A stretch of DNA of 32,000 nucleotides from Archaeoglobus fulgidus DSM 4304 (GCF_000008665.1 NC_000917.1:390001-422000), one strand, 5' to 3'. Positions 1,191-32,000 are shown, counted from the first letter of the stretch. Notes: a model not told the origin generated them from the sequence alone. Numbers and translations: made by a program.

Positions 1191-1293
1191 CACCTTTTTG
1201 TGTGGTGTTACTAACAACTGTGCTAATGGCAGACTGAAGATTAAAATTTTGGTTTTTGGTGTTACCAAAGGTTACAAAGAACAGTAAATTTAT

Positions 1294-1315
1294 GAGAAGA
1301 AAAATTGAAAGAAAA
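1294..1315 (-). terminator. Oligo-T stretch after the hbd stop (candidate archaeal terminator)
   Basis: Immediately 3' of the TGA (1318-1316), the minus strand reads TTTTCTTTCAATTTTTCTTCTC. Archaeal RNA polymerase terminates at oligo-T runs. No experimental support. Confidence 0.35.
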
Positions 1316-2230: not shown

Positions 2231-2234
2231 GCCA

Positions 2235-3005
2235 TCACCTTCCCCTAAACTCAGGCTTCCTCTTCTCCAGAAACGCCCTCATCCCCTCCTTAGCATCCTC
2301 GCTGGAGAAGAGCAGGGCGAAGAGGCTTGCCTCATACCTCAGCCCCTCCTTCAGGGGCATGTTGATTGATGCGTTCAAAGCTTTCTTCGCCACCTTTACA
2401 GCGAGAGGCGATTTCTCGATTATTTTAGCGGCAACCTCCTTTGCCCTCTCCATCAGCCTTTCGTGCTCCACAACCTCCTCAACCAGCCCTATTCTTAAAG
2501 CAGTCTGAGCATCGATTATCTCCCCCGTAAGAACAAGCTTTTTCGCCATCCCCAGCCCCACGAGCCTCGGCAGCCTCTGCGTCCCTCCCGCTCCGGGAAT
2601 TATGGCGAGGTTTATCTCTGGCTGCCCGAACTTTGCCTTTTCACTGGCAATTCTTATGTCGCACGCCATCGCCAGCTCACAACCCCCACCGAGGGTGTAT
2701 CCGTTAACTGCGGCAATCACCGGAATCTCAAGCTCCTCAATTCTCGAAAAGAGATCCGTTCCGAGCTTTGTTGCCTCAAAAGCCTTAATTGCATCCCTCT
2801 GAAGAAGCTCGTTGATGTCAGCGCCGGCAGCAAAGGCCTTGCCGCTGCCGGTAATGATTAAAACTCTTGCCACTTCCTCGATGCCCTCAATAACCTCAGC
2901 CAGCTCCATCCTCGTTTTGGTGTCAAGAGCGTTTAGCTTCTCTGGTCTGTTGAGGGTTGCAACAGCAATTTCACCATCAAGCTCAAGCTTGACTCTCTCT
3001 CCCAT
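2235..3005 (-). CDS. Enoyl-CoA hydratase (crotonase family)
   Basis: 256 aa. Contains LNRPEKLNAL, FAAGADI, and GYTLGGGCELAMACDIRIAS followed by FGQPEINLAIIPGAGGTQRL, the classical crotonase oxyanion-hole and catalytic-Glu regions. Confidence 0.9.
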   Translation of the reverse strand: MGERVKLELDGEIAVATLNRPEKLNALDTKTRMELAEVIEGIEEVARVLIITGSGKAFAAGADINELLQRDAIKAFEATKLGTDLFSRIEELEIPVIAAVNGYTLGGGCELAMACDIRIASEKAKFGQPEINLAIIPGAGGTQRLPRLVGLGMAKKLVLTGEIIDAQTALRIGLVEEVVEHERLMERAKEVAAKIIEKSPLAVKVAKKALNASINMPLKEGLRYEASLFALLFSSEDAKEGMRAFLEKRKPEFRGR

Positions 3006-3014
3006 TCTCCCACC

Positions 3015-4163
3015 TCAAAGCTTTCCTATCAACCTTCTCGCAATTATCTGCTTCTGAACCTCTTTCGTTCCCTCGTAAATCTCCATCAGCTTCGCATCCC
3101 TGTAGTAGCGCTCTGCCGGATACTCGCCGATGTACCCGTAGCCACCATGAAGCTGCACGCACCAGTCTGCGACGTAAACAGCTGTCTCCCCTGCAAACCA
3201 CTTGGCCATCGAGGAAAGCTCAGGCCTTGACTGCCCGATGCTGCACTGCCAAGCAGCCTGCCACGTCAGCAGCCTTGCAGCCTGAATGCGCGTCGCCATC
3301 TCGGCAATCTTGAATTGCGTGTGCTGAAATGCAGCAATCGGCTGCCCGAACTGCTTCCTCTGCTTAACGTAGTTCAAAGCAAGCTCAAAAGCCCCCTGAG
3401 CTATCCCCACAGCCTGAGCCGCCACCCTCGGTCTCGTGTGGTTGAAGAACTCCATGAGGTAGTAGAAGCCCTTTCCCGGCTCGCCCAGAATGTTCTCCTC
3501 CGGCACCTTTACATCTTTCAGCACAATCTCAGCTGTATCACTCGCCCTGAGGCCGAGCTTGTTCTTTATCTTCGTAGCCTTAAACCCCTTACTCTTGCTC
3601 TCCACAATGGCGAAGGTGAGGCCGTGGTGCCTCTTCTCCCCCTCGTAGGTTCTACCCAGAACCAAAACGAAATCGCAGACAGTGCCGTTGGTGATGAACA
3701 TCTTGGTGCCGTTTATGACCCACTCGTCCCCCTCCTTGACGATTTTGGTCTTAACGTTAGCCACATCACTTCCCGCCTCTGGCTCGGTTGTCGCCATTGC
3801 CGAAATCCCGTGCCTCTCAGTCACCCATCTAAGATACTTCTCCTTCTGCTCCTCACTGCCGAACAGGATGAGAAGCTCAGTGCCGAAGGTTGAGCTAAGG
3901 CAAGCATTCCCTATCCCCGGACTAACCCTGTAGAACTCCTCCGTAACCAGAGCTTCCTCAAAAAGACTTAACCCCATACCCCCATACTCCTCAGGAATCT
4001 TCACTGTCGAGAAGCCAAGGTCTCTCGCCTTCCTGACGATTTCCATTGGATACTTTTCCTCTCTATCGCACTCCTCTATAACTTCGGGGGTGAACTCCTT
4101 CTCAGCAAACTCTCTCGCAGCCCTCCTTATGTCCTCCTGCTCAGGAGTTAGCTTAAAATCCAT
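3015..4163 (-). CDS. Acyl-CoA dehydrogenase (FAD-dependent)
   Basis: 382 aa. Contains TEPEAGSD, WVINGTKMFITNG and QLHGGYGY...YRDAKLMEIYEGT (catalytic Glu region), the ACAD family signatures. Confidence 0.92.
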   Translation of the reverse strand: MDFKLTPEQEDIRRAAREFAEKEFTPEVIEECDREEKYPMEIVRKARDLGFSTVKIPEEYGGMGLSLFEEALVTEEFYRVSPGIGNACLSSTFGTELLILFGSEEQKEKYLRWVTERHGISAMATTEPEAGSDVANVKTKIVKEGDEWVINGTKMFITNGTVCDFVLVLGRTYEGEKRHHGLTFAIVESKSKGFKATKIKNKLGLRASDTAEIVLKDVKVPEENILGEPGKGFYYLMEFFNHTRPRVAAQAVGIAQGAFELALNYVKQRKQFGQPIAAFQHTQFKIAEMATRIQAARLLTWQAAWQCSIGQSRPELSSMAKWFAGETAVYVADWCVQLHGGYGYIGEYPAERYYRDAKLMEIYEGTKEVQKQIIARRLIGKL

Positions 4164-4559
4164 TCAAACCACCTCGAAGTAAACTTTCCAGACTCCAGTT
4201 TCGTCCTTGCCCGGCTTTAACCTCACAACGTCGCCAACCCTGACCTCTTTCGCCCATCCCATCACCCTCACTTCCCCAAATCTGGCGATGGCGATGGTGT
4301 AGGGCTCCCTGTGCCACTCAAAACCTGCGGGAATTGTGTGAACTGTGGTGAAAGCTTCAACAACCCCCTCTCCTGTAATCTCAACCCACTCAACCTCTCC
4401 ACCGCAAAGGCATTCGGCCCTTGGCGGGTGGTGTTCTTTCCCGCAGCTTTTGCAGACGGTCTTGAAAACCTTCCCCTCTTCAAGCCCCTTCCAGTACCTT
4501 TCTGTCTTTGCCACGGGAATGCGGTGCTTCATCACGAGCTCACGACTCTCGATAAACAT
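4164..4559 (-). CDS. DUF35 OB-fold / zinc-ribbon protein (thiolase partner)
   Basis: 131 aa. Rubredoxin-like CKSCGKEHHPPRAECLCGG followed by an OB-fold-like C-terminus. Its stop abuts the acd start (4164/4163) and it begins 4 nt after the thiolase stop. This is the arrangement known for the DUF35 proteins that scaffold archaeal thiolases. Confidence 0.8.
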   Translation of the reverse strand: MFIESRELVMKHRIPVAKTERYWKGLEEGKVFKTVCKSCGKEHHPPRAECLCGGEVEWVEITGEGVVEAFTTVHTIPAGFEWHREPYTIAIARFGEVRVMGWAKEVRVGDVVRLKPGKDETGVWKVYFEVV

Positions 4560-4563
4560 CCTC

Positions 4564-5727
4564 TCACCTCCCGAAAATCATGACAAAGGCAAAATGTCCC
4601 GTCCCGCCCACATTGTGCAGCAAAGCCCTGTTGTTCCTCAGTTCAACCTGCAACTCCCCAGCCTCTCCACGCAGCTGCTTTACGATTTCGTAAACCATCG
4701 CAACTCCTGTTGCTGCCAACGGATGACCTTTCGCCTTTAAACCGCCGAAGGTATTTACAGGAAGCTTTCCGCCCAGCTCTGTCTCCCCGCTCTCCACAAG
4801 CTTCCCTCCCTCGCCCTTCCTGCAGAAGCCGAGGTCTTCGTAGGCCATAATCTCGGCGATGGTAAAGCAGTCGTGCACAGTAGCAAAATCAAGCTGCTTT
4901 ACCGGCTCCTCTATGCCAGCCTTCCTGTAAGCCATCTCCCTCGCCAGAACCGTAGCTTTAAGGCCGACAAAGCTCTCCCTGTTGGTCATATTTGAGGTGT
5001 CTGATGCGTAGCCAACCGAGTCAATCCACACGACATCGTCAATGCCGAGCTCCCTTATCTTCTCCTCACTCGCCAGAATTGCTGCTGCCGAGCCATCGCT
5101 TATCGGGGAGCAGTCGTAGAGCTTCAGTGGATAGGTGATGTACCTCGAATTCAGCACGTCCTCAACGGCAATCTCCTTCTGGAAGTGCGCCTTCGGGTTT
5201 CTGGCAGCGTTTCTGTGAGCCTTAACCGCAACCTTTGCCATCTGCTCCTCAGTAGTTCCATACTTCGCCATGTGGGCGGTTGCGTGCATTGCGTAGTAAG
5301 CGGGAAAGGTCGTGCCGTACTGGTGGAACTCCCACAGATAATTCCCCGCCCTGCCGCCGATAGCGAGGGAGGTGGCAGTGTCAACCTCAGTCATCTTCTC
5401 CACGCCAATGGCTATGGCCACGTCAGCCATGCCTGAAGCGATTGATGTGTACGCTGTATAAACCGCAGCAGCTCCTGTTGCACAGGCAGCCTCCACCCTC
5501 AGAGGCCCCTTACCCGCAAAACCGCAATACTCGTTTACAGGAACAGCAGGCATCAGCTCGTATCCCCTCGTATTTACTGATCCAACAACGCTCAGCTCAA
5601 CCTCATCCTGAGTTATCCCTGCATCGTCAAGCGCCTCCTTAACAGCCTCATAGGCAAGCTCCTGAATTACAGCATCATCTCTTCTCCCAAACCTTGAACA
5701 TCCAACGCCGATAACTCCAACTCTCAT
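4564..5727 (-). CDS. Thiolase (SCP-x / archaeal acetyl-CoA C-acyltransferase type)
   Basis: The ORF track gives 4564..5874, but the first 49 codons are low-complexity and non-thiolase-like. ATG at 5727 gives MRVGVIGVGCSRFGRR, a typical N-terminus. The nucleophile Cys context is VEAACATGAAAV, with GHPLAATG and NVGGTG near the C-terminus. Confidence 0.88.
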   Translation of the reverse strand: MRVGVIGVGCSRFGRRDDAVIQELAYEAVKEALDDAGITQDEVELSVVGSVNTRGYELMPAVPVNEYCGFAGKGPLRVEAACATGAAAVYTAYTSIASGMADVAIAIGVEKMTEVDTATSLAIGGRAGNYLWEFHQYGTTFPAYYAMHATAHMAKYGTTEEQMAKVAVKAHRNAARNPKAHFQKEIAVEDVLNSRYITYPLKLYDCSPISDGSAAAILASEEKIRELGIDDVVWIDSVGYASDTSNMTNRESFVGLKATVLAREMAYRKAGIEEPVKQLDFATVHDCFTIAEIMAYEDLGFCRKGEGGKLVESGETELGGKLPVNTFGGLKAKGHPLAATGVAMVYEIVKQLRGEAGELQVELRNNRALLHNVGGTGHFAFVMIFGR

Positions 5728-5806
5728 TGAAAAAAGTAGTCGTGTAATATTTAATGTTTTCGTGAAATATGAATTTTGCCTTGCAGCTCTATGCGTAGAG
5801 TTGGAA

Positions 5807-6304
5807 CTATGTTTTGGTTCTGATGGTCGTTCTACGATGATCTTTGTGCGTTTTAGAGGATATGTAGGTTGCAAGGTGATTAATCTTTATTCCCTTCTTA
5901 ACGAACCACTCCATGAACTTCCTGCGCTCCTCGTTGAACTCCTCAATGTCTCTGTACCTTACTACGAAGCAGAGGTCGTAGGCGGAGCCAACGAGTTCAA
6001 GAACGTTCTCCACGTAGTCGAGCTTGTTGAAGTGCTCTATAATCTCGTCTATCCTCGTCTTCGACTCAATGTCGAGGTCGACGAAGGTTACAGTGAGCAT
6101 GCTAAGCCCGAGCTTCTGGTAATTTGCCTTCCAGTAACCCTCCTTAATTTTTATTAGATATCCGTTGTCTTCAAGGGCTCTGACTCTGTTCTGAACAGTC
6201 CTGAGCGTTATTCCGAGCATCTCGGCAATCTCGCTCTGAGTTTTACCCCTTAAAATGTTCTCGATAATGGCCATATCGATATCGTCAAGCTGGCCTTTTC
6301 GCAT
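5807..6304 (-). CDS. Lrp/AsnC-family transcriptional regulator
   Basis: From ATG 6304: MRKGQLDDIDMAIIENILRGKTQSEIAEMLGITLRTVQNRVRALEDNGYL (HTH), followed by an RAM/ACT-like alpha-beta C-terminal domain. The 22-codon extension to 6370 in the ORF track runs through an AT-rich promoter-like region. Confidence 0.85.
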   Translation of the reverse strand: MRKGQLDDIDMAIIENILRGKTQSEIAEMLGITLRTVQNRVRALEDNGYLIKIKEGYWKANYQKLGLSMLTVTFVDLDIESKTRIDEIIEHFNKLDYVENVLELVGSAYDLCFVVRYRDIEEFNEERRKFMEWFVKKGIKINHLATYISSKTHKDHRRTTIRTKT

Positions 6305-6320
6305 AGTATGAAAGTAAACT

Positions 6321-6368
6321 AAAAATATAAAAATTTTATGTTTGCCATTAAATGGCAATTTTAATTGC
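6321..6368 (-). promoter_or_regulatory. Candidate lrp promoter plus overlapping palindromic operator sites
   Basis: Seen directly: TTGCCATT-A-AATGGCAA at 6342-6358 (8-bp perfect arms). It overlaps GCAATT-TT-AATTGC at 6355-6368. Both lie just upstream (minus sense) of an A/T block at 6321-6340 that could be the TATA box, about 20-40 nt before ATG 6304. Lrp-family proteins bind AT-cored palindromes of this size, so autoregulation is an inference. Confidence 0.4.
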
Positions 6369-6386
6369 AATTAAAGTGTAAGTATC

Positions 6387-6737
6387 TCACCTTCGAATTT
6401 CCGCCCATTTGTCTTCATTTTCAGCAACTCTCACTCTGCGAACGTTAAGTCCCTTTTCCGCAAGTTCGCTGAATATTCTCAGGCAGATGTTCTCCGAGGT
6501 TGGAATTTCGATCTGCTCGTTGAGCAGTGTGTGGTCGAACTTAGCCACCACCTCGTTGACAATTCTCTTTAGGTCGAAGAAGTCCATGACCATCCCGTTC
6601 TCCTTTACTTTGCCCGATATCTCCACTTCAACCTTGAAGTTGTGGCCGTGAACTTTTCCACACTTTTTGTGGCCCGGGATGCTGTGTGCTGCGCTGAAGG
6701 ATGTGGATATGCCAATTATCATCTCCTCTTCCATCAT
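6387..6737 (-). CDS. queD: 6-carboxy-5,6,7,8-tetrahydropterin synthase (QueD / PTPS-III)
   Basis: 116 aa. Contains FSAAHSIPGHKKCGKVHGHNFKVEV (His/Cys zinc and catalytic motif of the PTPS/QueD family). ATGA overlap with the queE stop. Confidence 0.88.
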   Translation of the reverse strand: MMEEEMIIGISTSFSAAHSIPGHKKCGKVHGHNFKVEVEISGKVKENGMVMDFFDLKRIVNEVVAKFDHTLLNEQIEIPTSENICLRIFSELAEKGLNVRRVRVAENEDKWAEIRR

Positions 6738-7411
6738 CTCACCCCCAGATACTTGTGAACCTGCGGAATCACCCTCGTGTCGGCGAAGTCAATCATACGC
6801 TTCTGCAGCTTAAGAATTTTTTCCACCCTGCTGCCGAAGACAGGCTGAAGGACAAATCCGAAAACGTAATTTTTGATCTCGTACGCCGAGTTAAGAACTT
6901 CATCAGCATCAAATTTATCGGGAAGGACTATTTTGCAGAAAGTCTTTCTCCTTCTGGTGTTTCTCAATACTTTAAAGCATTTTACAGTTTTTTGGAATAC
7001 TTCATCGTAGTTTTTCAGCCCTGCTTCCCTTACCTTCAAATCTCCTGCAACGTAATCGCAGAATTTGAGCTTTTTAGCCTTTTCAGGCAGAGTCATATTC
7101 GATTCAAGGTAAAAGGGGTGCGTTTTGCTCAGAGATGCTATAAACTCAGCCTGCAGCATGGGCTCACCACCGGTAAAGCACACTGAGTGGACTTTGCTGG
7201 AGTCTATCCGCCCCTGAACGTACTCGGCAGAAACTGGATTCTTAAGGGTTCTGTTTGCAGTCAAATCCAAACAGTTTTCAGACGTTTTTGGTGTGTCGCA
7301 GTAGTAGCAGTTAAGATTGCATCCCGCAAATCTCACGAAAAGCTGCCTGACGCCAATGTAAAACCCCTCTCCCTGAATCGACTCGAAAATTTCAATCAGA
7401 TTTGCCCTCAT
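6734..7411 (-). CDS. queE: 7-carboxy-7-deazaguanine synthase (radical SAM, QueE)
   Basis: 225 aa. Contains IFESIQGEGFYIGVRQLFVRFAGCNLNCYYCDT, the QueE N-terminus with a CxxxCxxC radical-SAM cluster motif. Sits between queC and queD. Confidence 0.88.
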   Translation of the reverse strand: MRANLIEIFESIQGEGFYIGVRQLFVRFAGCNLNCYYCDTPKTSENCLDLTANRTLKNPVSAEYVQGRIDSSKVHSVCFTGGEPMLQAEFIASLSKTHPFYLESNMTLPEKAKKLKFCDYVAGDLKVREAGLKNYDEVFQKTVKCFKVLRNTRRRKTFCKIVLPDKFDADEVLNSAYEIKNYVFGFVLQPVFGSRVEKILKLQKRMIDFADTRVIPQVHKYLGVR

Positions 7412-8111
7412 TCCTCGCCCTCATCTCCTCGTAAATTTTCACCGCATTTTTCCATTCCTCATCGCTGAGGAGAGGGTCCTTCACTCCGTTGGCAAGGAAG
7501 GCTTCAGTGCGCTCAAGGCACGTCCCGCAGCTCAAGCAAGGCCTATCGCCCCCTTCATAGCAGCTCCAGGTAAGCTCGTAGGGAACTCCCAGCTTTAAAC
7601 CAAGCCTCACGATGTCCGCCTTGGTCATGTCCACGAAGGGCGCCCTAACCTCCACAGGCGTCCAGATGTTTGCAAGATAAACTGCAGTATCAAGAGCTTT
7701 AACGAACTCCTTCCTGCAGTCTGGGTAGATGCTGTAGTCGCTGAGGTGTGCTGCATAGTGCACTTCCTTCGCTCCGATTTTTACCGCATAGCCTGCTGCT
7801 ATTGACAGCAGAATCATGTTTCTGTTTGGAACGATTGTTCTCCGCTGAACTTCCTCGCTGTAAAATGCCTTTGGAACCTCCTCTTCCCCCGTCAAGGCCC
7901 CGTAAGAGATGAGGTCGTGAATTGTAGAGATGTCGACCTTGAGATGTCGAACTTTAGCAGCCTTTGCAACTTTTTCGGCGCTTTCGATTTCCTTGGAATG
8001 CTTTTGGCCGTAGAAGAACGTTAGAGCGTGAACCTCGTAACCTCCGTCGAGCAAGTAGTAAAGGAGTGTTGAGGAATCAATCCCACCACTCAGGAGCATT
8101 ACGGCTTTCAT
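7392..8111 (-). CDS. queC: 7-cyano-7-deazaguanine (preQ0) synthase QueC
   Basis: PP-loop LLSGGIDSS and a C-terminal zinc motif CYEGGDRPCLSCGTCLER. The ORF-track start at 8129 is a TTG. ATG at 8111 (MKAVMLLSGG) gives the usual QueC N-terminus. Confidence 0.9.
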   Translation of the reverse strand: MKAVMLLSGGIDSSTLLYYLLDGGYEVHALTFFYGQKHSKEIESAEKVAKAAKVRHLKVDISTIHDLISYGALTGEEEVPKAFYSEEVQRRTIVPNRNMILLSIAAGYAVKIGAKEVHYAAHLSDYSIYPDCRKEFVKALDTAVYLANIWTPVEVRAPFVDMTKADIVRLGLKLGVPYELTWSCYEGGDRPCLSCGTCLERTEAFLANGVKDPLLSDEEWKNAVKIYEEMRARNEGKSD

Positions 8112-8196
8112 GTAGAAGGTGGATTTCAAAGTTATATGAAGTCATCGCCCTTTAAACCACAATATTCATAAATCCTATGCAGAATTTTTCATCTGA

Positions 8197-8279
8197 GCGG
8201 GGGTTGCCGAGCGGACAAAGGCGCAGGATTGAGGGTCCTGTCCCGTAGGGGTTCGAGGGTTCGAATCCCTCCCCCCGCA
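8197..8279 (+). tRNA. tRNA-Leu (anticodon GAG)
   Basis: Hand-folded 83-nt cloverleaf. Acceptor GCGGGGG/CCCCCGC. Anticodon stem CAGGA/TCCTG with loop TTGAGGG (U33, GAG, G37). Long variable arm (class II). T-arm GAGGG-TTCGAAT-CCCTC. Discriminator A. CCA is not encoded and there is no intron. Confidence 0.93.
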
Positions 8280-8368: not shown

Positions 8369-11300
8369 CTTTCAATCCCATTTTGGTCTGATTTCAACTT
8401 ACTGTGTTCCGAGCTTTCAGAGGCAGGCCAAGAGCTCTTTTAATCCCATTTTGGTCTGATTTCAACCTTCATGTGCTCTCAACCAGTAGTATATTGTCCT
8501 AACTGCTTTCAATCCCATTTTGGTCTGATTTCAACAGGCCCGGAATCAACAGGAACACCTGATACACGAATACTTTCAATCCCATTTTGGTCTGATTTCA
8601 ACATGCGGAATTAACAGCATTATCAGGAAAGCGATTATGACTTTCAATCCCATTTTGGTCTGATTTCAACGGGGGGAGGATGAGAGCTCTGTTTGCCGTT
8701 CTGGTGTCTTTCAATCCCATTTTGGTCTGATTTCAACTTTCTGGCATGGGGAGTTAGCAGGAACGTGGCAGGCTACTTTCAATCCCATTTTGGTCTGATT
8801 TCAACGTTAAGCTCTCGGTCGGGCTCTTTGCTCGGTAGAACCCTTTCAATCCCATTTTGGTCTGATTTCAACGACTGTAATCTCAACTCCTCCGCCATCT
8901 TCTGAAACTCCTTTCAATCCCATTTTGGTCTGATTTCAACCACATTGACGTGGCGGATTAAGCGCTTGTGGAAAGTGTTTTCTTTCAATCCCATTTTGGT
9001 CTGATTTCAACGATGAAGCCATATTTGTCGCATTATTCCACGACGTCCTTTCAATCCCATTTTGGTCTGATTTCAACCTTCTCAACTATCGGTTGTTTGA
9101 CATTTGTATCCTTTCCTTTCAATCCCATTTTGGTCTGATTTCAACGAAGTTCCACATTCCCGTGACTTTCAAGAAGATTATGCTTTCAATCCCATTTTGG
9201 TCTGATTTCAACACAATCTGATCGAACAGATTACCAGTCAAAGCAACTCCCTTTCAATCCCATTTTGGTCTGATTTCAACTTGCTGAGCTCAGAGGCTTT
9301 ACCGCTAACACTCGCCTTAACGCTTTCAATCCCATTTTGGTCTGATTTCAACTTGTCAGTTCTCTTCTGATCGATTCGGCCAGAGTGGTATATTCTTTCA
9401 ATCCCATTTTGGTCTGATTTCAACCTGAGTCTGCTTACTCCAAGATTTATGTCTCTGTATGTCTCTTTCAATCCCATTTTGGTCTGATTTCAACCCGGCA
9501 AAACAAGATACCACGATTTCTTCCCATGCCACTTTCAATCCCATTTTGGTCTGATTTCAACCTCCGACTATCACCCAGTCAAACCCCTCGAAGTCCGACT
9601 TTCAATCCCATTTTGGTCTGATTTCAACAGGTGCCTTGTAACCTTTCTATTTTTTGATTGCTCTCTTTCAATCCCATTTTGGTCTGATTTCAACTACCGA
9701 GCTGCTCAGCGTTGGGATGGAGTATTTCACGCTTTCAATCCCATTTTGGTCTGATTTCAACCTGCGGGGGAGCAGCCCATCGCCGAATACGACAACCTTT
9801 CAATCCCATTTTGGTCTGATTTCAACTACTCCCCTGAAACCTCCTCAGAGCCTTCGTGTCCTCTTTCAATCCCATTTTGGTCTGATTTCAACCGTTCGGC
9901 GTCGTAGAGGAAGAGAAGAGGGAGTCCAGACTTTCAATCCCATTTTGGTCTGATTTCAACGAGGCGTTCATCAAGGAGGCTTACCGAGTTCTAAAAAAAG
10001 ACTTTCAATCCCATTTTGGTCTGATTTCAACAGTCGTTTTGAAAACCACCGAGCCGTCAGCGGTTGCGACCCCTTTCAATCCCATTTTGGTCTGATTTCA
10101 ACTAAGATCCTGAAGCCAGATCCAGACCTCAAAGAAGGCCTTTCAATCCCATTTTGGTCTGATTTCAACCAATCTCGTCGTCAGCAATCGAGATATTAGC
10201 AGTTCCCGACTTTCAATCCCATTTTGGTCTGATTTCAACTATTTAGCCCTCTTAACGACCCGTTCTTCGCTGTTTATCTTTCAATCCCATTTTGGTCTGA
10301 TTTCAACTTTAAGAACCTTGAATGTCTTACCTGCTGGAAGTCTAAACCCTTTCAATCCCATTTTGGTCTGATTTCAACTCAGCCACGTCGTTGAACCGAT
10401 GCTCGCAGACTTCAACGGCTCCCTTTCAATCCCATTTTGGTCTGATTTCAACTCCGTAACTATGCTATTGTTCTCAAGCAAATTATACTCTTTCAATCCC
10501 ATTTTGGTCTGATTTCAACCAGGAGGAATGATATGTTTATTGGACAAAGACAGGTCTTTCAATCCCATTTTGGTCTGATTTCAACATCGCCAATTGCCTC
10601 AACACTCACTTTGCCATAGCAATACAACTTTCAATCCCATTTTGGTCTGATTTCAACTTCGGGGGATTTGATGAGTTGCTTCTCCTCTTGCCCTTCTTTC
10701 AATCCCATTTTGGTCTGATTTCAACTCCCCTCTGGAGTTCGTGAGGTATGCCTCCTTTATCTTTCAATCCCATTTTGGTCTGATTTCAACGGCCGAGCTG
10801 AAGCTGCTCTATGTCGGAGAGTTCCACTTTCAATCCCATTTTGGTCTGATTTCAACTAACGAATCTCAAAGCCCTCGCATTGGAAAGGGTCGCTTTCAAT
10901 CCCATTTTGGTCTGATTTCAACCAAGTACAGACTCTCGAAGCCGCCCGTAAAATCGCTCTTTCAATCCCATTTTGGTCTGATTTCAACAAACCCCCCTCT
11001 TGGTGGAGTTGGCAAAGATTATGTCCTTTCAATCCCATTTTGGTCTGATTTCAACTCACGACGCTCCCTAACGGTAAGGCAATAGTTAAAAGCTTTCAAT
11101 CCCATTTTGGTCTGATTTCAACTAGGGCAACAGTTGTTCGATCTCCTCTCTCGTTAAGCTTTCAATCCCATTTTGGTCTGATTTCAACTGTTCAATCAAG
11201 TCAAAACGTATTACTCTCAAAGCGCTTTCAATCCCATTTTGGTCTGATTTCAACCATTAACAGCTCTCAGAACGATTTGGGACAGAACAATCTTTCAATC

Positions 11301-11590
11301 CCATTTTGGTCTGATTTCAACTTGAACTCCACCTCTGGCAACAGCGGCTGCTATTACTGCTTTCAATCCCATTTTGGTCTGATTTCAACCCTTGATCGAG
11401 GGAGAGAAGAACCCTCGAGTCGTCGTCCTTTCAATCCCATTTTGGTCTGATTTCAACTCAAAAACGTTTTGGAGAGTAGTTCTCGCACTTGCTGCTTTCA
11501 ATCCCATTTTGGTCTGATTTCAACCGCCTTGCTGAAAGCTCTAAGCACCACTTCGGCAATCTTTCAATCCCATTTTGGTCTGATTTCAAC
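8369..11590 (-). CRISPR. CRISPR array: 48 x 30-nt repeats and 47 spacers (35-44 nt)
   Basis: Every repeat was located by hand, the first at 8369-8398 and the last at 11561-11590. Plus-strand unit is CTTTCAATCCCATTTTGGTCTGATTTCAAC. Only the repeat at 8437-8466 differs (CTTTTAAT...). All spacers are unique by eye. Minus-strand transcription is inferred for three reasons. The reverse complement GTTGAAATCAGACCAAAATGGGATTGAAAG ends in ATTGAAAG, the canonical Cas6-generated 8-nt crRNA 5' tag. The long AT-rich non-coding flank lies on the right. The single degenerate repeat lies at the left (trailer) end. Confidence 0.97.
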
Positions 11591-11660
11591 CATCAGTAAT
11601 TTTCCCTCTATTTCCAATTTAAAGTTTTCTGAGGGATTTTTTCATTTATATACCTCCGCG
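11591..11660 (-). promoter_or_regulatory. CRISPR leader with candidate TATA box
   Basis: 425 bp of visibly AT-rich non-coding DNA (11591-12015) abuts the array. On the minus strand, TATATAAA (11652-11645) is preceded by purine-rich GGAGG (BRE-like) and lies about 55-60 nt upstream of the first repeat. The transcription start site is not known. Confidence 0.45.
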
Positions 11661-12015
11661 AGGTGTCGAAAGTGCATCTCATTTATAACGGCGTGCGACT
11701 TTTATCCTGCTACTCAATTTCCTACTAAACCATTTTCCGGAACTTATTTCTACTTTAAAATCTTTTCCTCAAGCTTATCCTGCCAAAAAATAATCAAAAC
11801 AATCCATTTCCAAAAATAACCAAATATAAAACATAATTCTACCCAATTAAAACTCAAGATAAATTACTGTGACAAGCACTCTGAGATGATTTTTCGCAGA
11901 ATAACGGTCTAAAACTGGCCAAAATCTAAACTCAATTTATTTCCTCTTGCTTTGCAATCACACTGACTCTCAATAAAACCCTTAATCTTAATTACCCACA
12001 CCCCAAACAGGAATC

Positions 12016-20115: not shown

Positions 20116-21033
20116 ATGGATTACATGGAACTTGTTCTGGAGAACATTCGAGACGGTATTTTCGTCATTCAGAATGATGTAATCGTTTTCGCGACCCCTT
20201 CGGTAAAAGAGGCCGGATACGATATTTCAGAAGTTGTTGGTAAAAAATTTATTGAGTTCATCTGGGAGGGGAACAGAGAGGATGTTCTCAAAATCATCAG
20301 GTCCTTAACGGATGGGGCTGAATGTGAAATCAGAGCTCTGGCTAAGAAAAAAGATGGTAGGGCATGGATAGACGCCAGGTGCAAAAAGGTTGGAGAATAC
20401 CTGATTGTTGTAGCTAGAGACGTTTCCAGGCTGGTCTCTCTTGAAACTCTGCTTAGAGCCACCTTGGACATGCTTAGGCATTCACCAAGCGAAATTGACG
20501 AAGTTGAGAACATTCTGCGTGAGTATTTTGATGATGCAAGCTTTTCAGAAAAAATTCAGGACTTCAAGATTAAAGTAGGTGAGGTCACAGTTCCCGTTAG
20601 GTTTCAGGACAGAGTGTTGGGGAGCCTCAAAATCCAGCTGCCAGACTGGTTTGAGGTCACCGCCGAGGACATGGAACTTTTCAACGTTTTAGGGGAGTGT
20701 GTAGCGAAAAACATGATCATGCTGGAGTCAAGGAGAATCATAAGAAGCTCTCTTGTAGCTATTAAGGCAGCTTCAGAGAACCTTGCTCTTCTTGTCGATA
20801 GGATAAGAAATCCCCTTGCCGCCATTAACGGTTTTGTGGAGGTAAAAGTAGGAGGAGACGTTTACGAAAAGGTTCATGAACAGGTTATGGCAATTGAGGA
20901 GATTGTGAAGACTCTCGATGACGAGTGGGAGAAGGTGGACAGGCTTGCAGATAAGCTCAGCGAAGCCTTTTCTGTTTTAGAAAAACTCGGAACGACTGAA
21001 TCTCAGAAAATAAATAAAAAACGAAAAACCTAA
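20116..21033 (+). CDS. PAS sensor with C-terminal DHp-like helix in which the phospho-acceptor His is Arg; no ATPase domain
   Basis: 305 aa. N-terminal PAS (LENIRDGIFVIQNDVIVFATPSVKEAGYDISEVVGKKF). The C-terminus LALLVDRIRNPLAAINGFVEVKV is paralogous to the H-box of the 771-aa sensor, with an AGG (Arg) codon at 20800-20802 where the paralogue has His. Confidence 0.75.
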   Translation: MDYMELVLENIRDGIFVIQNDVIVFATPSVKEAGYDISEVVGKKFIEFIWEGNREDVLKIIRSLTDGAECEIRALAKKKDGRAWIDARCKKVGEYLIVVARDVSRLVSLETLLRATLDMLRHSPSEIDEVENILREYFDDASFSEKIQDFKIKVGEVTVPVRFQDRVLGSLKIQLPDWFEVTAEDMELFNVLGECVAKNMIMLESRRIIRSSLVAIKAASENLALLVDRIRNPLAAINGFVEVKVGGDVYEKVHEQVMAIEEIVKTLDDEWEKVDRLADKLSEAFSVLEKLGTTESQKINKKRKT

Positions 21034-22928
21034 ACCTTCAAAGCCAGATCAGCTCCCTCCCTTGTTGCATCGAGAGCCTTTCTGGGCTTAACGCAGTCTC
21101 CAATCTTGTAGAGCTCGCTAACCTTGCCCTGAAGCTCGTCATACAGCCCATTGTTCGGCTTTGTACCGACAGCTATAACAGCAGTGTCACACTGCAACTC
21201 TTTCCTCTCACCATTCTGCTCCACAACCACTGCATTGGGCTTGATTTCAACAGCCTTCGTGTTGGTGAGCATCTCCACTCCCTTCTCTTTCAGGTACATC
21301 AATACGGTCCATCTTGTCGAGATGCCTATATCCTGGCCAATCTTCGGCAACATCTCCACAATTGTAACCTTCTTCCCCTCATTTGCAAGCTCTGCTGCAA
21401 CATCGCATCCAACTCCTCCTCCGCCTATAACCACCACACTGTTTCCAACCTCTGCCCTTCCTGCGAGGACATCGAAGGCTGTTACAGCATTCTCAACTCC
21501 CGGAATTGGTGGGATCAAAGGAGAAGCTCCAACGGCTATTACCGCAACATCAGGGTTCTCTGCTAAAACTTTGCCCGCATCAGCCTCCGTGTTGTATCTC
21601 ACCTCTACCCCAAGCTTTGGCAGGACGTTCATGAAGTACTTGCCCACTTCTGCAAATTCATAGCCCAAAGGTGACTTCGCAGCCAAGTTGAGCTGCCCTC
21701 CCAATTTGTCAGTTTTCTCGAATAAAACTACCTTATGCCCCTTTCTTGCAAGCATCTCTGCAGCCATGCATCCTCCCGGTCCACCTCCGACAATAACAAC
21801 CTTCTTTGGTTTTTCTGCTTTCAGATTTTCAAACTCAGCCTCCCTTCCAACTATGGGGTTAACGAGGCATGTAACTGGCTGAGCCTGCATAACCATGTCC
21901 ATGCAGCCCTGGTTGCAGGCCACGCAATACCTTATCTCATCAAACCTTCCCTCCTTGGCCTTCTTCGGCAGTTCAGGGTCGGCAATCAAAGCTCTCAGCA
22001 TTGCAACCATATCTGCCTTGCCCTCCTGCAGTATCTTTTCAGCCACAATCGGATCATTGATGCGGTGAGATGCGATAACGGGAACGCTTACAGCGCTCTT
22101 TATCTCTGCTGCAAGGTAAGCAAAACCTCCTCTGGGAACGAGCATTGTTGTCAAAGGCTTTCTGGACTCGTGCCAGCCCGCCATTACGTTGATTGCTACA
22201 ACTCCTGCATCCTCCAATATTTTGGCAATCTGCTTCATTTCTCTGACTGTGTTCCCTCCCTCGATGAACTCGTCTCCGGGGATTCGTATCATTACTGGAT
22301 AGCTCTCTCCGCACTTTTCCTTGATTTTTTGAATTATCTCAACCGCAAACCTCGTGCGGTTTTCCAAGCTGCCCCCATACTCGTCCGTTCTTTTGTTCGT
22401 TGCGGGGCTGAAGAACTGGGAAATGAGGTAGCCTGCTGAACCAATAAGCTCGACAGCATCGAAGCCAGCTTTCTTCGCCCTCACAGCTGCATCAGCAAAC
22501 TCCTCCTCGATTTGAAGGATTTCTTCTTTGGTGAGCTCTTTGGGAGTGCGCTTGGTGAAGATTGGTGGTGGTATGGGGGATGGGGCGACTGGTTGGCGGT
22601 TGGGGTCGAAGGAGATTTCGTATCTGCCTGGGTGCCATAGCTGTAAAGCGCATTTCACGTCGTACTTGTGGAAGACGTCGGCTATCTTCTTGAGGTCTGG
22701 AATAAATTCGTCGGAGTGTGCTGCTATTCCACCAAAGAAGTGGGGTTCGATTTTGGCAATCCCTACAACCGCAAAACCTATCCCTCCCTTCGCCCTCTCT
22801 TCGTAGAATCTCAAAAGCCTGTCAGTAGGTCTTCCATCGGGAGTGTGGTAGTTGAGTTCAGCAGCAGGCATTACAATGCGGTTCTTTACCTTCATTCCTC
22901 CAAACTCGATTGGCTCGAAAAGCTTCAT
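21030..22928 (-). CDS. Old-Yellow-Enzyme-type FMN domain + [4Fe-4S] + FAD/NAD(P) domain oxidoreductase (2,4-dienoyl-CoA reductase FadH / NADH oxidase family)
   Basis: 632 aa. N-terminal TIM-barrel OYE pattern (VKNRIVMPAA...LQLWHPGR...DAVELIGSAGYLISQFFSP). Cluster motif CVACNQGC. Then VVIVGGGPGGCMAAE and VVVIGGGGVGCDVAAE dinucleotide folds. Confidence 0.9.
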   Translation of the reverse strand: MKLFEPIEFGGMKVKNRIVMPAAELNYHTPDGRPTDRLLRFYEERAKGGIGFAVVGIAKIEPHFFGGIAAHSDEFIPDLKKIADVFHKYDVKCALQLWHPGRYEISFDPNRQPVAPSPIPPPIFTKRTPKELTKEEILQIEEEFADAAVRAKKAGFDAVELIGSAGYLISQFFSPATNKRTDEYGGSLENRTRFAVEIIQKIKEKCGESYPVMIRIPGDEFIEGGNTVREMKQIAKILEDAGVVAINVMAGWHESRKPLTTMLVPRGGFAYLAAEIKSAVSVPVIASHRINDPIVAEKILQEGKADMVAMLRALIADPELPKKAKEGRFDEIRYCVACNQGCMDMVMQAQPVTCLVNPIVGREAEFENLKAEKPKKVVIVGGGPGGCMAAEMLARKGHKVVLFEKTDKLGGQLNLAAKSPLGYEFAEVGKYFMNVLPKLGVEVRYNTEADAGKVLAENPDVAVIAVGASPLIPPIPGVENAVTAFDVLAGRAEVGNSVVVIGGGGVGCDVAAELANEGKKVTIVEMLPKIGQDIGISTRWTVLMYLKEKGVEMLTNTKAVEIKPNAVVVEQNGERKELQCDTAVIAVGTKPNNGLYDELQGKVSELYKIGDCVKPRKALDATREGADLALKV

Positions 22929-25720: not shown

Positions 25721-27886
25721 ATGCTCCCTGTCGAACGCCCGCTCCTTACGATCCTTCTAATCTCGTCTGTAATCGCTTTCTTTATCTTCTCAGCCCAAAA
25801 CCTTGAATTTGGATCTGCTGACTATGCAGACAGCTTTCCTCCATGGGATGCGATTTACAGGCAGTATGAGCTTTACTACAAGGATTTTGGCTATACTCCC
25901 GAAAACGTTTACATCATCGTGAAGGCTGAGGACGTTTTGAGCAGAGATGTTATGGAGTACATGCTCTCCCTCCAGAAGGTTCTTGAGGGGAGGGATGGCG
26001 TTGTTTCTACCTCTTCTCCCGCCTCCATCCTTCGTGATGTGCTTGGAGATATTCCTGACAGCGAAGAACTCGTTGGGGAAACTGCTGAAAGGCTCGCCAA
26101 GTCCCTTTTGCCTGAAAGGAGCTTTGCTCTGATTTCTGTTCAAATTGAAAGCATGGAGAATGACAGGCTAATGGAGCTTGCTGAGGAGATTGAGAGGATT
26201 CTGCAATTCGTCTCTCCTCCGCCCGGAGTTGTTGTTGACGTTACGGGCGGGGCTGTGCTGATGTACCAGATTGCTAAGGCCGTTGAGGAGGATGTTTACC
26301 GCACATTTTTCATAGCATCAGTGACGATGATTGCAGTCCTAGTTGCCGTTTTCAGCGGGGTCGTGAGGAGCAAGCTCACGGTTTTGTTTCCCTTAATTGT
26401 TTCTCTGATGTCCGTTGCAGTTATGGCTGGATTGCTGCCCCTTCTGGGGCTTCAGATGACAGAGTACAACTCCGCAACAATCCCCATTCTAATCGGTCTT
26501 GCCATTGACTACGCTGCCCAGCTTCAGAACCGCTATGAGGAAGAGAGGAGGGGAGGGAGAGAGGTTGATGAGGCCTTAGAGGAGGCATTAAACCACACTA
26601 GGTTCCCCCTTTTCATGGCCATGGCCACAACAGTAATTGGCTTCGCATCGATGTGTGCTCCGGGAATTCCTTCGCTCTTCTGGTTCAGCTTCCTCCTTTC
26701 AGTTGGTCTTATTACCGCTTTTTTGCTTTCGAACACCTTCTTGCCTTCACTGCTAAAGCTTTCCGACAGAGGAGGGAGAGAGGAATCCATTTCCCCCGGA
26801 ATTCTTGAAAAGCTTCTCACGACAATAGCCAAGGTTACAATAGCCAATTCGAGAAAAATTCTTGCTTTAACTCTGATTCTGATTGTTGTCGGAGCTTATG
26901 CCAGCACACACGTTGAGCTTGAAACGAACAGGAGGAAGTATGCTCCTCCAGACCTTCCAGCTTTGGTTAAGTTCGAGGAGATTGAGAGAAAGGTTTCCCC
27001 GCAGTACGTCTACGCTCTGGTTCTTTCTACAGAGAGAATTGATGCGGAAAGTGTTGTGAAAGCTGAAGAGCTGGCCAAGTACATTTCCTCAAGGGAGGAG
27101 ATTTACGACTACGACTCCCTCGGGAAGACCTTGGAGGAGTATTACGGTGCCATCCCTGCAGAGAGTTTTTCGAAGGCTATTGATGCTCTTCCCAAAAGCA
27201 TTTACAGCAGGTTTATTTCTGGGAACCAGCTGGCAGTCTACTTCTACACCAACACGCAGACGGAGGAGGAAGTTGAGAAGATGATGCGGAGCATCGAAAA
27301 TGACTTGAGATTTCTGGAGTGGGATGGGGATTACTACATAACGGGCTTCCCCGTCATCCTCGGCCATCTCAGTGAGGTTCTATTCAGCAGCCTCAACCTC
27401 ATGACGTTGGTGGCGTATCTGCTCATCGTAACTTTCCTTCTCCTCGCCTACCGCTCTGTTGTGAGGGCCATCATACCGCTCATCAGCATTTCTGTGGCTG
27501 TAGCTTCGATGAACGTCTGCATGCTTTTGATGGGGATTAAGCAGACGACCATTTCAATAGCCCTCAACTCAATTGTGCTGGGAATGGGTATTGATTACTC
27601 CATCCACATCACGGAAAGGTACTTCGAGGAGAGGGGGAAGTTTGGTGTGGAGGAGTCCGTTAAGAGAACAGTTGAGAGAACGGGAAAAGCTGTCCTCACC
27701 TCAGCCCTAACAACTGCGGGCGGGTTTGGGGCCCTTTACTTCTCCACCTTCCCCGTTTTGAGCAACTTCGGAATTCTCGCATTCATAGCTATAATCTTCA
27801 GCCTTCTGGCAGCGACCTCAGCAGTCCCTGCGCTGCTGATTCTCTACGAGAAAAACTACTTCAGGGAAATCCTGAAAATGACCTGA
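25721..27886 (+). CDS. RND-superfamily (MMPL / COG1033-type) membrane exporter
   Basis: Two repeats, each a large extracytoplasmic domain followed by five to six transmembrane helices, with GLAIDYAAQL and GMGIDYSIHITERY motifs. The ORF track starts at 25676. I prefer ATG 25721 (MLPVERPLLTILLIS...) because 25676 lies only 14 bp from the divergent mutase start, leaving no promoter space. Confidence 0.82.
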   Translation: MLPVERPLLTILLISSVIAFFIFSAQNLEFGSADYADSFPPWDAIYRQYELYYKDFGYTPENVYIIVKAEDVLSRDVMEYMLSLQKVLEGRDGVVSTSSPASILRDVLGDIPDSEELVGETAERLAKSLLPERSFALISVQIESMENDRLMELAEEIERILQFVSPPPGVVVDVTGGAVLMYQIAKAVEEDVYRTFFIASVTMIAVLVAVFSGVVRSKLTVLFPLIVSLMSVAVMAGLLPLLGLQMTEYNSATIPILIGLAIDYAAQLQNRYEEERRGGREVDEALEEALNHTRFPLFMAMATTVIGFASMCAPGIPSLFWFSFLLSVGLITAFLLSNTFLPSLLKLSDRGGREESISPGILEKLLTTIAKVTIANSRKILALTLILIVVGAYASTHVELETNRRKYAPPDLPALVKFEEIERKVSPQYVYALVLSTERIDAESVVKAEELAKYISSREEIYDYDSLGKTLEEYYGAIPAESFSKAIDALPKSIYSRFISGNQLAVYFYTNTQTEEEVEKMMRSIENDLRFLEWDGDYYITGFPVILGHLSEVLFSSLNLMTLVAYLLIVTFLLLAYRSVVRAIIPLISISVAVASMNVCMLLMGIKQTTISIALNSIVLGMGIDYSIHITERYFEERGKFGVEESVKRTVERTGKAVLTSALTTAGGFGALYFSTFPVLSNFGILAFIAIIFSLLAATSAVPALLILYEKNYFREILKMT

Positions 27887-28260
27887 CTTGCCGTTCTCAG
27901 CTTACGGCGTATTTGCGGAAGCTCGTACATGTAGAGTGTCAGTATTCCGTTGAGAACTCTGTCAAAGCCGAAGGCTCTTTTAATGAACTCTGCATGAAGC
28001 TTATCTCTGACGTAAATAACCCTCTCCCCTCCAATGTCGTTCATCTCAAGGATTACGGGAATTCTGAACCTCGGCCAGTCAAGCTCGTCCACGTGCTGGG
28101 CTATGAACTCAAGCTCTCTCTTCTCAATGTAGTATTCATTTCCATCCTTCGCTCTGATGGTTGGGTCCTTTTCCTTCAGCATCTCCGCTAAGCTTCTCGT
28201 CTTTTCGGGCATGTGCTTGTTCACGGCTTCAATCATCTTGGCAAGAGTTTTCTCATCCAT
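27856..28260 (-). CDS. UPF0216 / DUF61-like archaeal protein of unknown function
   Basis: 134 aa. The pattern (LNKHMP-like N-terminus, ...DGNEYYIEKRELEFIA...RIPVILEM...) matches my recollection of the archaea-specific UPF0216 family. Its ATG (28260-28258) follows the upstream TAA immediately. The 3' end overlaps the convergent RND gene by 31 nt. Confidence 0.6.
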   Translation of the reverse strand: MDEKTLAKMIEAVNKHMPEKTRSLAEMLKEKDPTIRAKDGNEYYIEKRELEFIAQHVDELDWPRFRIPVILEMNDIGGERVIYVRDKLHAEFIKRAFGFDRVLNGILTLYMYELPQIRRKLRTASQVIFRISLK

Positions 28261-29843: not shown

Positions 29844-30009
29844 ACAAACCAATATGTATCAATACTATCACAGCTAAATCAACCAAAATGCTTATAAAAC
29901 CATTAACTTCATCAGCAAAAAAGGAGGTGGTAGCATCATAGAGGTTGCAAGAGATGAAGAGAGGGGGAATTACCTGTATTTCAGCGCAGAGAGATGCGTT
30001 GGATGCGGA

Positions 30010-30339
30010 ATGTGCGAGTCAGTTTGCCCCAAGTCAGCCATTAGCGTATATAGAAACGGAAAGGACTTCGAAGTGGAAATCAACGAGAACTGTGCCGTCT
30101 GCGGAACCTGCAGCGACTTCTGTCAGTTCGGGGCTCTTAAATTCTACAGAAACGGTAAAGAAGGTGGAGTGTATACAGAAATTTTGAAAGAAGAGTTGGG
30201 ATTTAAGAAAGTAGATGTAAATCCTCAAGATTGTATTTTATGCTCACTCTGCATGAAAACCTGCCCAAGAGATGCAATCAAGGTTATCAGGTCTGTTGAC
30301 CTCAAGAAGCTGAGGAGAGGAGAGATAAGCATAGGTTAG
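30010..30339 (+). CDS. Polyferredoxin, 5' segment (ends at an in-frame TAG; first Cys motif begins upstream of the called ATG)
   Basis: Contains CAVCGTCSDFC and CILCSLCMKTCP. The called Met lies inside the motif C-V-G-C-G-M-C-E-S-V-C-P, whose first Cys codon is at 29995-29997 in the same frame. The stop TAG is at 30337-30339. Confidence 0.6.
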   Translation: MCESVCPKSAISVYRNGKDFEVEINENCAVCGTCSDFCQFGALKFYRNGKEGGVYTEILKEELGFKKVDVNPQDCILCSLCMKTCPRDAIKVIRSVDLKKLRRGEISIG

Positions 30340-31068
30340 GGGTGCATAGAGTGCAGACTTTGCGTTGAGAACTGCCCCACTAAGGCAGTCAAAATCTACC
30401 ACGGTAAGCCAGTCATCGACGAAAGCAAGTGTATATACTGTGAAATATGTTCAAAGGTTTGCCCGATGGACGTCATAACAGTGAGATGCGACTCCTGCAG
30501 GATATTCGAGCAGAGGAAGGAGGCTGTCATAGGAACTGTGATAGTTGACGAAGGTTCATGCTCAACCTGCAAAATGTGCACCGAGGTTTGCCCAACTGGC
30601 GCAATAAAGGTTGAAAGAATCTTTGAAGGGGAGCAGAAGTGGAGCAAAGAAAAGTGCATCGAGGACTGCACGGTTTGCAGAGACATCTGCCCCAACAACG
30701 CAATATCCTATGCCTATGATCCGGAGAAGAGGGTTGTTTTCAGCGACAGGTGCAACTTCTGCGGGACGTGCGAGAGGTACTGTCCCGGCAACGCCATCGA
30801 AATAGACAGAAGGCTTAGGGAGGACATAGAGATTGAGTTCAAGAGGGCTGAAAGGAGTAAAAAGAAGGAAATCAGAGTGGGTGAGATCTGCATCGGCTGC
30901 GGTATCTGCGAAAGCATCTGTCCGGTCAGTCAAAACGGCAACACTATTGAGATTGTCAACGGTAAAGCTGTCGGAAGGGTGAGTGAAGCTTGCACCGCAT
31001 GCGGTCTCTGCGTGGTTAACTGTCCGGTGGAGACGATAGAGGTTAGGGAGATTAAGGAAGAGTCCTAA
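30340..31068 (+). CDS. Polyferredoxin, 3' segment (same frame as 30010..30339; the ORF-track start at 30466 is internal)
   Basis: Directly after the TAG the frame reads GCIECRLCVENCP...CIYCEICSKVCPMDV..., so the Met at 30466 sits inside a cluster motif. There are seven CxxCxxCxxxCP-type motifs in this segment. No in-frame start codon lies between 30340 and 30466. Confidence 0.6.
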   Translation, partial: GCIECRLCVENCPTKAVKIYHGKPVIDESKCIYCEICSKVCPMDVITVRCDSCRIFEQRKEAVIGTVIVDEGSCSTCKMCTEVCPTGAIKVERIFEGEQKWSKEKCIEDCTVCRDICPNNAISYAYDPEKRVVFSDRCNFCGTCERYCPGNAIEIDRRLREDIEIEFKRAERSKKKEIRVGEICIGCGICESICPVSQNGNTIEIVNGKAVGRVSEACTACGLCVVNCPVETIEVREIKEES

Positions 31069-31104
31069 CGAAAAGCAAATATATTTGCATTTTTTCCTTT
31101 TTCC

Positions 31105-31293
31105 ATGGCAAGGAAGGCTATCGTTGACAGAAGAAAATGCGCTTACTGCGGGGCCTGCGTTGCCGTCTGTCCTGCAGATGCAAATGAGCTTGTTGAAACC
31201 TTTCTCGAGATTTACGATGACAGGTGCACCGGCTGCGGAATCTGCGTGAAGATGTGTCCGATGGGAGCCTTGGCCATGGTGGAGGTGGACTAA
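31105..31293 (+). CDS. Small 2x[4Fe-4S] ferredoxin
   Basis: 62 aa with [12 protein letters not shown] and [12 protein letters not shown]. Its TAA overlaps the next gene's ATG (TAATG at 31291-31295). Confidence 0.85.
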
Positions 31294-32000
31294 TGTACGA
31301 CGTTGTGGTTGTTGGAGCCGGGCCAGCGGGAAGCATGGCAGCGAAAACCGCTGCGGAGCAGGGTTTGAAGGTTCTTCTGGTGGAAAAGAGGCAGGAGATT
31401 GGCACGCCTGTTAGATGCGCCGAGGGAATTAGCAGGGAGAGCATTGAGAAATTCTTCGAAGTGGACAAGAAGTGGATTGCGGCCGAGGTAACCGGAGCGA
31501 AAATCTATGCCCCGAACAAAACCGAAATCGTGATGTCAGAGGAGATGGCTGGCAATGAGGTTGGTTACGTTCTTGAGAGGAAAATTTTCGACCGCCACGT
31601 TGCCAGACTTGCCGCAAAGGCTGGGGCGGAGGTTTATGTTAAGACGGCAATGGTCGATTTTGAGAGAAAAGATGGAAAGGTGAAGGTAAAGCTCAGGAGG
31701 CTCGGAGAAGACTGGGAAGTTGAGACGAAAATTTTGATCGGAGCTGACGGCGTGGAGAGCAAGATTGGCAGAAAGGCTGGGATAATCAAGACCCTCAAGC
31801 TTAATGAGGTAGAGAGCTGTGCTCAGTACCTCATGACCGGTCTCGATATCGATGAGAGCTACACGTACTTCTACCTCGGGAGAGAGCTTGCTCCCGGCGG
31901 CTATGCCTGGATTTTCCCCAAGGGAAACGGTTCGGCAAATGTGGGTATAGGAGTTCTGCCGAAAATGGCCGAAAGGACTGCAAAGGAGTACCTTGACGCA
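31293..32000 (+). CDS. Geranylgeranyl reductase (digeranylgeranylglycerophospholipid reductase), 5' partial
   Basis: Not in the ORF track because it runs off the window. My translation is [33 protein letters not shown]...PVRCAEGIS...[12 protein letters not shown]...[22 protein letters not shown]. This contains the FAD dinucleotide fold, the conserved RCAEG Cys and the YxWxFP...GxG motif of archaeal GGR. Confidence 0.9.

Follow-up and report, generated by a model that had tools for sequence, protein, structure and literature searches.

Organization of the locus and of its reading frame

The window, that is, the whole 32-kb stretch of Archaeoglobus fulgidus DSM 4304 DNA that we analyzed, holds near its end a polyferredoxin locus whose features are collected in Table 1. 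The neighbors of the polyferredoxin are genes for DUF63, SAM hydroxide adenosyltransferase, and DUF61 proteins, a small ferredoxin, and a geranylgeranyl reductase. Translation of the polyferredoxin region yielded a single open frame, from an upstream TAA at 29875 to the TAA at 31066-31068, with TAG 30337-30339 as its lone break. This bears out the original prediction, made from the DNA alone, that no other codon interrupts the frame. The codons after the TAG read GCIECRLCVENCP, in the context ...EISIG*GCIECRLCVENCP.

Table 1. Coordinates of the polyferredoxin locus, counted from the first nucleotide of the window
Feature	Coordinates	Strand	Remarks
Archaeal TATA-box-like element GCTTATAAAA	29890..29899	+	Within the conserved block CAACCAAAATGCTTATAAAAC
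Shine-Dalgarno (SD)-like GGAGGTG	29923..29929	+	Invariant in 6 of 7 lineages; GGGGGTG in the seventh
ATC-ATA, candidate non-canonical initiation codons	29935..29940	+	Most likely start; ATY 5 nt after the SD in 7 of 7 lineages
Polyferredoxin, N-terminal segment	29935..30336	+	134 codons from ATC 29935; Cys motifs 1-3
TAG nonsense codon	30337..30339	+	From GAG (Glu), by G-to-T at 30337
Polyferredoxin, C-terminal segment	30340..31068	+	242 codons and TAA; Cys motifs 4-10; sequence intact
Mechanical ORF, 200 aa	30466..31068	+	First ATG past the TAG; any product would be without motifs 4 and 5
TATA-like element AATATATTT	31079..31087	+	About 20-25 nt upstream of the ferredoxin ATG
2x[4Fe-4S] ferredoxin, 62 aa	31105..31293	+	Pfam Fer4 families; candidate electron donor of the reductase
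Geranylgeranyl (digeranylgeranylglycerophospholipid) reductase, 5' part	31293..32000	+	Runs off the window; 387 aa in full-length loci

The two ORFs previously delimited at 30010..30339 and 30466..31068 do share one frame, but 30010 does not hold as a start. The ATG at this position lies inside Cys motif 1 (CVGCG-M-CESVCP, from 29995) and is therefore not the true start, and conserved coding sequence reaches upstream to about 29935. Since the ARDEERGNYLYF codons show synonymous third-position changes across orthologues, the N-terminal region is coding. A regular-expression search located ten Cys motifs, at 29995, 30091, 30232, 30343, 30430, 30559, 30655, 30751, 30889, and 30991. The predicted number is thus right, and the predicted CxxCxxCxxxC(P) form is not uniform: it is CxxCxxCxxxC in nine of the ten motifs and Cx3CxxCxxxC in the seventh, and motif 2 is followed by Q instead of P. 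The motif positions also place the TAG between motifs 3 and 4, as had been proposed, two codons ahead of motif 4.

Between the TAG and ATG 30466, the frame contains no ATG, GTG, or TTG, only ATA and ATC codons, in line with the reported absence of a start codon there. The Met at 30466, which is the first one past the TAG, directly follows the C-P of motif 5 and does not lie inside this motif as had been stated. The C-terminal segment appears to have no means of being translated from its own beginning, and in the strain carrying the TAG, translation is expected for the N-terminal segment only.

One gene encoding a relative of FwdF

On sequence grounds, the locus is best read as one FwdF-like polyferredoxin gene broken by a single TAG. 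The NCBIfam FwdF profile is collinear across the break, with the N-terminal part matching profile positions 9-135 and the C-terminal part 140-316. A search of 5.8 billion proteins returned more than 30 uninterrupted orthologues of 350 to 400 aa from Archaeoglobus, other Archaeoglobaceae, and Geoglobus. Both results agree with the earlier inference of one gene. The closest orthologue, an A. fulgidus protein of 364 aa (P0001) with 99% identity, reads ...EISIGEGCIECRLC..., and none of the orthologues examined is split at the TAG boundary.

We then looked into the family of the protein. Pfam detected generic Fer4 families only, and the best NCBIfam model was FwdF, the polyferredoxin of tungsten formylmethanofuran dehydrogenase (NF042909). 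With the intact, 90%-identical orthologue P0134, this model aligned residues 5-292 to profile positions 2-316 at 230 bits, which does not reach its curated cut-off of 375 bits, nor do the two window fragments (82 and 138 bits). FwdF was also the best sequence match among solved structures (9SW6_H and 5T5I_F; phmmer E = 7e-38, residues 7-281 versus 30-329), in an alignment that spans the break. An AlphaFold2 model computed from 31 orthologues (mean pLDDT 89.9) retrieved FwdF chains as the best Foldseek matches (E = 4e-21, 32% identity, probability 1.0). With a TM score of 0.47 to 0.50 and an rmsd of about 12 Å, the domains match, and the overall arrangement does not clearly do so.

FwdF from Methanothermobacter wolfeii (PDB 5T5I, 5T5M, and 5T61, chain F; see also 9SW6_H and 7BKB_K) thus provides the best match in both sequence and fold, and its eight cluster motifs are collinear with motifs 1-8 of the A. 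fulgidus protein. However, FwdF has eight motifs in four fused ferredoxin domains versus ten motifs here, and A. fulgidus and its closest relatives have no adjoining genes for fwd/fmd catalytic subunits. The protein consists of a FwdF-like eight-cluster core and an extra two-cluster C-terminal domain. Because its score is below the cut-off and the TM score is only about 0.5, we consider it a relative of FwdF and not a demonstrated member of the family. It also resembles MvhB/VhuB of the F420-non-reducing hydrogenase in using tandem 2x[4Fe-4S] ferredoxin-like domains as an electron wire, with partial matches to NF045874 (138 bits, for a cut-off of 600 bits) and to 9SW6_G (E = 6e-23). MvhB/VhuB proteins differ in having twelve clusters and in being encoded in mvh/vhu hydrogenase operons, whereas no hydrogenase genes were found near the polyferredoxin.

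Conserved 5' region and candidate non-canonical start codon

The frame has no ATG, GTG, or TTG between its upstream stop (29875) and 30010. We compared the layout of this region in the window with that in L091 (A. fulgidus DSM 8774), L093, L094, L095, L099, L100, and L102 (metagenome contig Ga0071330). Seven lineages share the same order: a TATA element, a spacer of ~22 to 27 nt, GGAGGTG, 5 nt, ATY, ATA, GAG, a variable codon, and the ARDEERGNYLYF region. The block CAACCAAAATGCTTATAAAAC is conserved in six aligned lineages, with a close variant in the seventh (L100), and its TATA-like element is likely the polyferredoxin promoter. The GGAGGTG element resembles a Shine-Dalgarno sequence, which is complementary to the 3' end of 16S rRNA. 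The ATY codon is ATC in four lineages and ATT in three, and the next codon is ATA, except for CAG in one lineage. In four of the seven, Cys motif 1 is not preceded by any ATG, GTG, or TTG. ATY is the only universally conserved candidate, and this non-canonical codon (AUY in the mRNA) is the apparent start of the polyferredoxin family. Public annotations of the start disagree, with CTG 29974 in P0001, ATA 29938 in P0132 and P0134, and ATC 29878 in P0130; P0132 and P0134 begin with MEVARDEE, which corresponds to ATA read as Met.

Two other candidates were rejected. The variable codon at 29944 could have been a mutated GTG or TTG start, and it reads GTT, GTC, TTG, GTG, GTG, CTG, and GTC across the seven lineages. 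GTG or TTG is thus present in three lineages and GTT, GTC, CTG, or GTC in four, and since these four have no canonical start there, the codon behaves as an internal Val or Leu. A frameshifted start was considered at the out-of-frame ATG 29954, with the G5 run at 29963-29967. Among the six further lineages of the alignment, five have ACG at this triplet, and the frame is the same in all lineages; the synonymous changes in ARDEERGNYLYF and the identity of DSM 8774 in this region also rule out a frameshift.

Three contigs of ~4.9 kb (L083, L084, and L085, from Logan SRR13570407, SRR4136262, and SRR4136263) begin at 29929-29933, i.e., 2 to 6 nt upstream of ATC 29935 and about 30 to 35 nt past the TATA-like element. 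Their other ends lie at -8 to +32 nt relative to the start codon of gyrA, a convergent gene. Such ends suggest that these contigs are transcript-derived (RNA-seq-like) assemblies with a transcription start at either end. If so, the TAG allele is transcribed into an mRNA that begins just ahead of the ATY codon, and coverage runs unbroken from the polyferredoxin through the ferredoxin to the reductase gene.

Neighboring ferredoxin and reductase

The reductase matched Pfam GGR_cat (5e-26) and TIGR02032 (188.6 bits, for a cut-off of 158.8). The stop codon of the ferredoxin gene overlaps the start codon of the reductase gene (TAATG, 31291-31295), which indicates that the 62-aa ferredoxin and the reductase are translationally coupled. 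This arrangement, with a small 2x[4Fe-4S] ferredoxin gene directly upstream of the reductase gene and overlapping it, is similar to the ferredoxin-reductase gene pair of Methanosarcina acetivorans, which includes no polyferredoxin. In M. acetivorans, the reductase is specifically reduced in vivo by the ferredoxin encoded beside it (PMC10821996). For the A. fulgidus reductase, the in vivo reductant is not known, and the upstream 4Fe-4S protein was named as a possible reducer in the same review (PMC10821996).

We then evaluated the original proposal of a link between the polyferredoxin and the ferredoxin-reductase pair. The order polyferredoxin, 62-aa ferredoxin, reductase is kept in A. fulgidus, Archaeoglobus neptunius, and four MAG lineages, one of which has different flanking genes. 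The same order is absent in Archaeoglobus sulfaticallidus, in Geoglobus, and in another Archaeoglobaceae MAG; the A. sulfaticallidus orthologue adjoins an FmdE-family gene and is the only one so placed. The link is thus plausible from the order kept in close relatives, which suggests a possible role of the polyferredoxin in feeding the ferredoxin-reductase pair, but it does not extend to the gene order of distant orthologues. If the membrane lipids of A. fulgidus VC-16 are fully saturated, the polyferredoxin is not essential for the saturation step.

Related TATA-like elements occupy the position of AATATATTT in nine orthologous intergenic regions, and this element may be a separate promoter for a leaderless ferredoxin-reductase mRNA. 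Given this conservation, the ferredoxin and reductase genes are probably transcribed from a promoter of their own and would be untouched by the nonsense mutation. The spacer at 31069-31104 contains the palindromic GCAAATATATTTGC followed by T-runs, and it might also terminate transcription of the polyferredoxin gene. Of the few differences between strains, two fall in this spacer (A/T at 31078 and an extra T at 31089).

Ancestral codon and age of the TAG

Across about 5,000 aligned bases, two sequences barely differ from the window: A. fulgidus DSM 8774 (CP006577, L091; the same strain as 7324), with 4 differences, and FJNF01000104 (L092), with 3. In both, the sole difference within the polyferredoxin gene is G for T at 30337, which gives GAG (Glu). 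GAG is also present in JARRCC010000014 (L101) and in the metagenome contig Ga0071330. The more distant orthologues checked at the DNA level have GAG or GAT at this codon, and the position is almost always Glu or Asp in our alignment of 31 orthologues. The sense codon found elsewhere is thus GAG or GAT, and the ancestral GAG is among the codons from which the original prediction derived the TAG by a single-base change. Of the explanations which that prediction offered, a recent nonsense pseudogene is the one backed by the evidence, given the GAG of near-identical strains.

An intact polyferredoxin is encoded by several genomes and MAGs of A. fulgidus and Archaeoglobus. A scan of metagenomes added one close relative (Ga0071330), with an intact copy, and a scan of a genome collection returned no close orthologue, only distant polyferredoxins (from Geoglobus, at 49%, and from methanogens). 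From these comparisons, the TAG is private to one lineage, apparently A. fulgidus VC-16. Apart from position 30337, the gene matches the intact DSM 8774 allele base for base, and the mutation is very recent. Literature searches with the locus tags AF0461 to AF0463 retrieved unrelated GenBank accession numbers only, and the DSM 8774 genome paper makes no mention of the polyferredoxin gene, of pseudogenes, or of SNPs.

The A. fulgidus-like sequence JARRCC010000014 (GCA_029982885.1), a draft assembly, has a nonsense codon of its own, a TGG (Trp) to TGA change at L101 3263-3265, equivalent to 30640-30642 in the window. It keeps GAG at the equivalent of 30337, and its other differences within the gene are nine synonymous and two non-synonymous changes. 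The polyferredoxin gene has thus been under long-term purifying selection, yet it appears to have been broken twice independently in the species complex, with the second break seen in a draft assembly. Two independent breaks would suggest that the gene is dispensable in some settings and hint at recurrent loss.

Sequencing error, recoding, and split gene as alternatives

That the TAG is a sequencing or assembly error of the reference, the real codon being GAG, might be thought from the GAG of close relatives, which is only one base away. The downstream 200-aa ORF is present on 14 public contigs, and we retrieved ten of them. These are independent assemblies from at least five accession series (Logan SRR606249, ERR9765743/6/7, SRR13570407, SRR4136262/3, and ERR1254308; a JGI metagenome; and an ENA assembly), all identical to the reference strain. 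SRR606249 comes from a mock community that presumably includes A. fulgidus DSM 4304. This community was prepared from separately grown cultures (10.1101/462788). Each of the ten contigs is 100% identical to the window over 1.9 to 4.5 kb, and the TAG stands in the same context in all of them. Because ten de novo assemblies of separate public read sets agree, a sequencing error, which had been one of the options put forward, is excluded for practical purposes. It is likewise extremely unlikely that the TAG is recoded in a programmed manner, as pyrrolysine or another residue or through regulated low-level readthrough, to give a full-length polyferredoxin. The reading frame past the TAG is still intact, and Pyl machinery occurs sporadically, in a few Archaeoglobi such as "Ca. 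Methanoglobus hypatiae" (10.1101/2024.09.30.615893, PMC9499178). The locus thereby resembles the pyrrolysine TAGs of the Methanosarcina methylamine methyltransferase genes, with a lone in-frame TAG in an intact, conserved archaeal gene and a host class in which some members have Pyl machinery. In these systems, however, orthologues share the TAG and pylTSBCD is present in the genome, whereas the present TAG is strain-private, replaces Glu or Asp, and is missing from sister strains with ~99.9% identity, which have GAG. Moreover, conserved genes of the same window terminate at TAG. For the DUF61 gene (27856..28260, minus strand), the stop is TAG, aligned with TAA or TGA in orthologues that share its C-terminus, which shows that TAG is an ordinary stop in the A. 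fulgidus genome. A 632-aa ORF (21030..22928, minus strand) also ends in TAG, so the window has at least two well-supported genes with this stop. Scanning the 32-kb window with ARAGORN and Rfam revealed no suppressor-relevant tRNA or RNA, only a tRNA-Leu(GAG), and to our knowledge A. fulgidus is not among the organisms reported to decode pyrrolysine. The readthrough or recoding option of the original prediction thus finds no support.

The TAG might instead have split the gene functionally, into a 134-aa ferredoxin with three motifs and a 200-aa protein restarted at ATG 30466 (motifs 6-10), with electron transfer retained. We regard this as unlikely. The sequence past the TAG is still identical to the intact allele, but a mutation this young would leave it so in any case, and the identity does not speak for selection. 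About 7 nt ahead of ATG 30466 there is a weak AGGT, although no strong ribosome-binding site precedes this codon. The seemingly transcript-derived contigs span the whole gene, which fits a split, and yet no orthologue is divided at this boundary. A restart at 30466 would also drop motifs 4 and 5 and leave motifs 3 and 6 partnerless. Low-level readthrough of the TAG near 80°C, by near-cognate decoding or by an unrecognised suppressor, might provide some full-length ten-cluster protein, which we consider very unlikely. If this did occur, the gene would be doubly throttled in translation, by its AUY start and by the TAG, and not inactivated.

Proposed loss of the polyferredoxin in strain VC-16

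We propose, with high confidence, that the locus carries a recent nonsense mutation in the FwdF-like ten-cluster polyferredoxin of the A. fulgidus type strain VC-16/DSM 4304. A single G-to-T transversion at 30337 turned GAG (Glu), at a position where an acidic residue is conserved, into TAG. Translation would end after about 134 residues, and the product would keep motifs 1 and 2, which form a complete two-cluster domain, and an orphan motif 3, with the loss of motifs 4-10. The 2x[4Fe-4S] fold draws the cysteines of each cluster from two motifs. For this reason, the long electron wire would be lost whether or not translation restarts at 30466. The TAG cuts motif 3 off from its partner, be it motif 4 or motif 6. 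The truncated protein is presumably non-functional or much reduced in function, and the gene would be dispensable under laboratory growth.

The finding is in itself ordinary, and single-base nonsense alleles are common in laboratory type strains. Its consequence for the reference genome is that both ORFs are to be read as fragments of one broken gene and not as two ferredoxins. VC-16 would be a natural polyferredoxin knockout, and strain 7324 (DSM 8774) has the gene intact; this pair could be used to probe whether the ferredoxin-reductase pair is fed by the polyferredoxin. The knockout/intact strain pair and the layout of the start codon are the only points that we consider worth following.

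CRISPR array in the window

Elsewhere in the window, a CRISPR array on the plus strand (8369-11590) consists of a 30-nt repeat, CTTTCAATCCCATTTTGGTCTGATTTCAAC, which is present 48 times and alternates with spacers of about 36 to 44 nt. The array is located just downstream of the tRNA-Leu(GAG) gene (8197-8279) and adjoins a minus-strand block of probable cas genes (93-8129). It also accounts for several spurious ORFs listed at 10741-11819.
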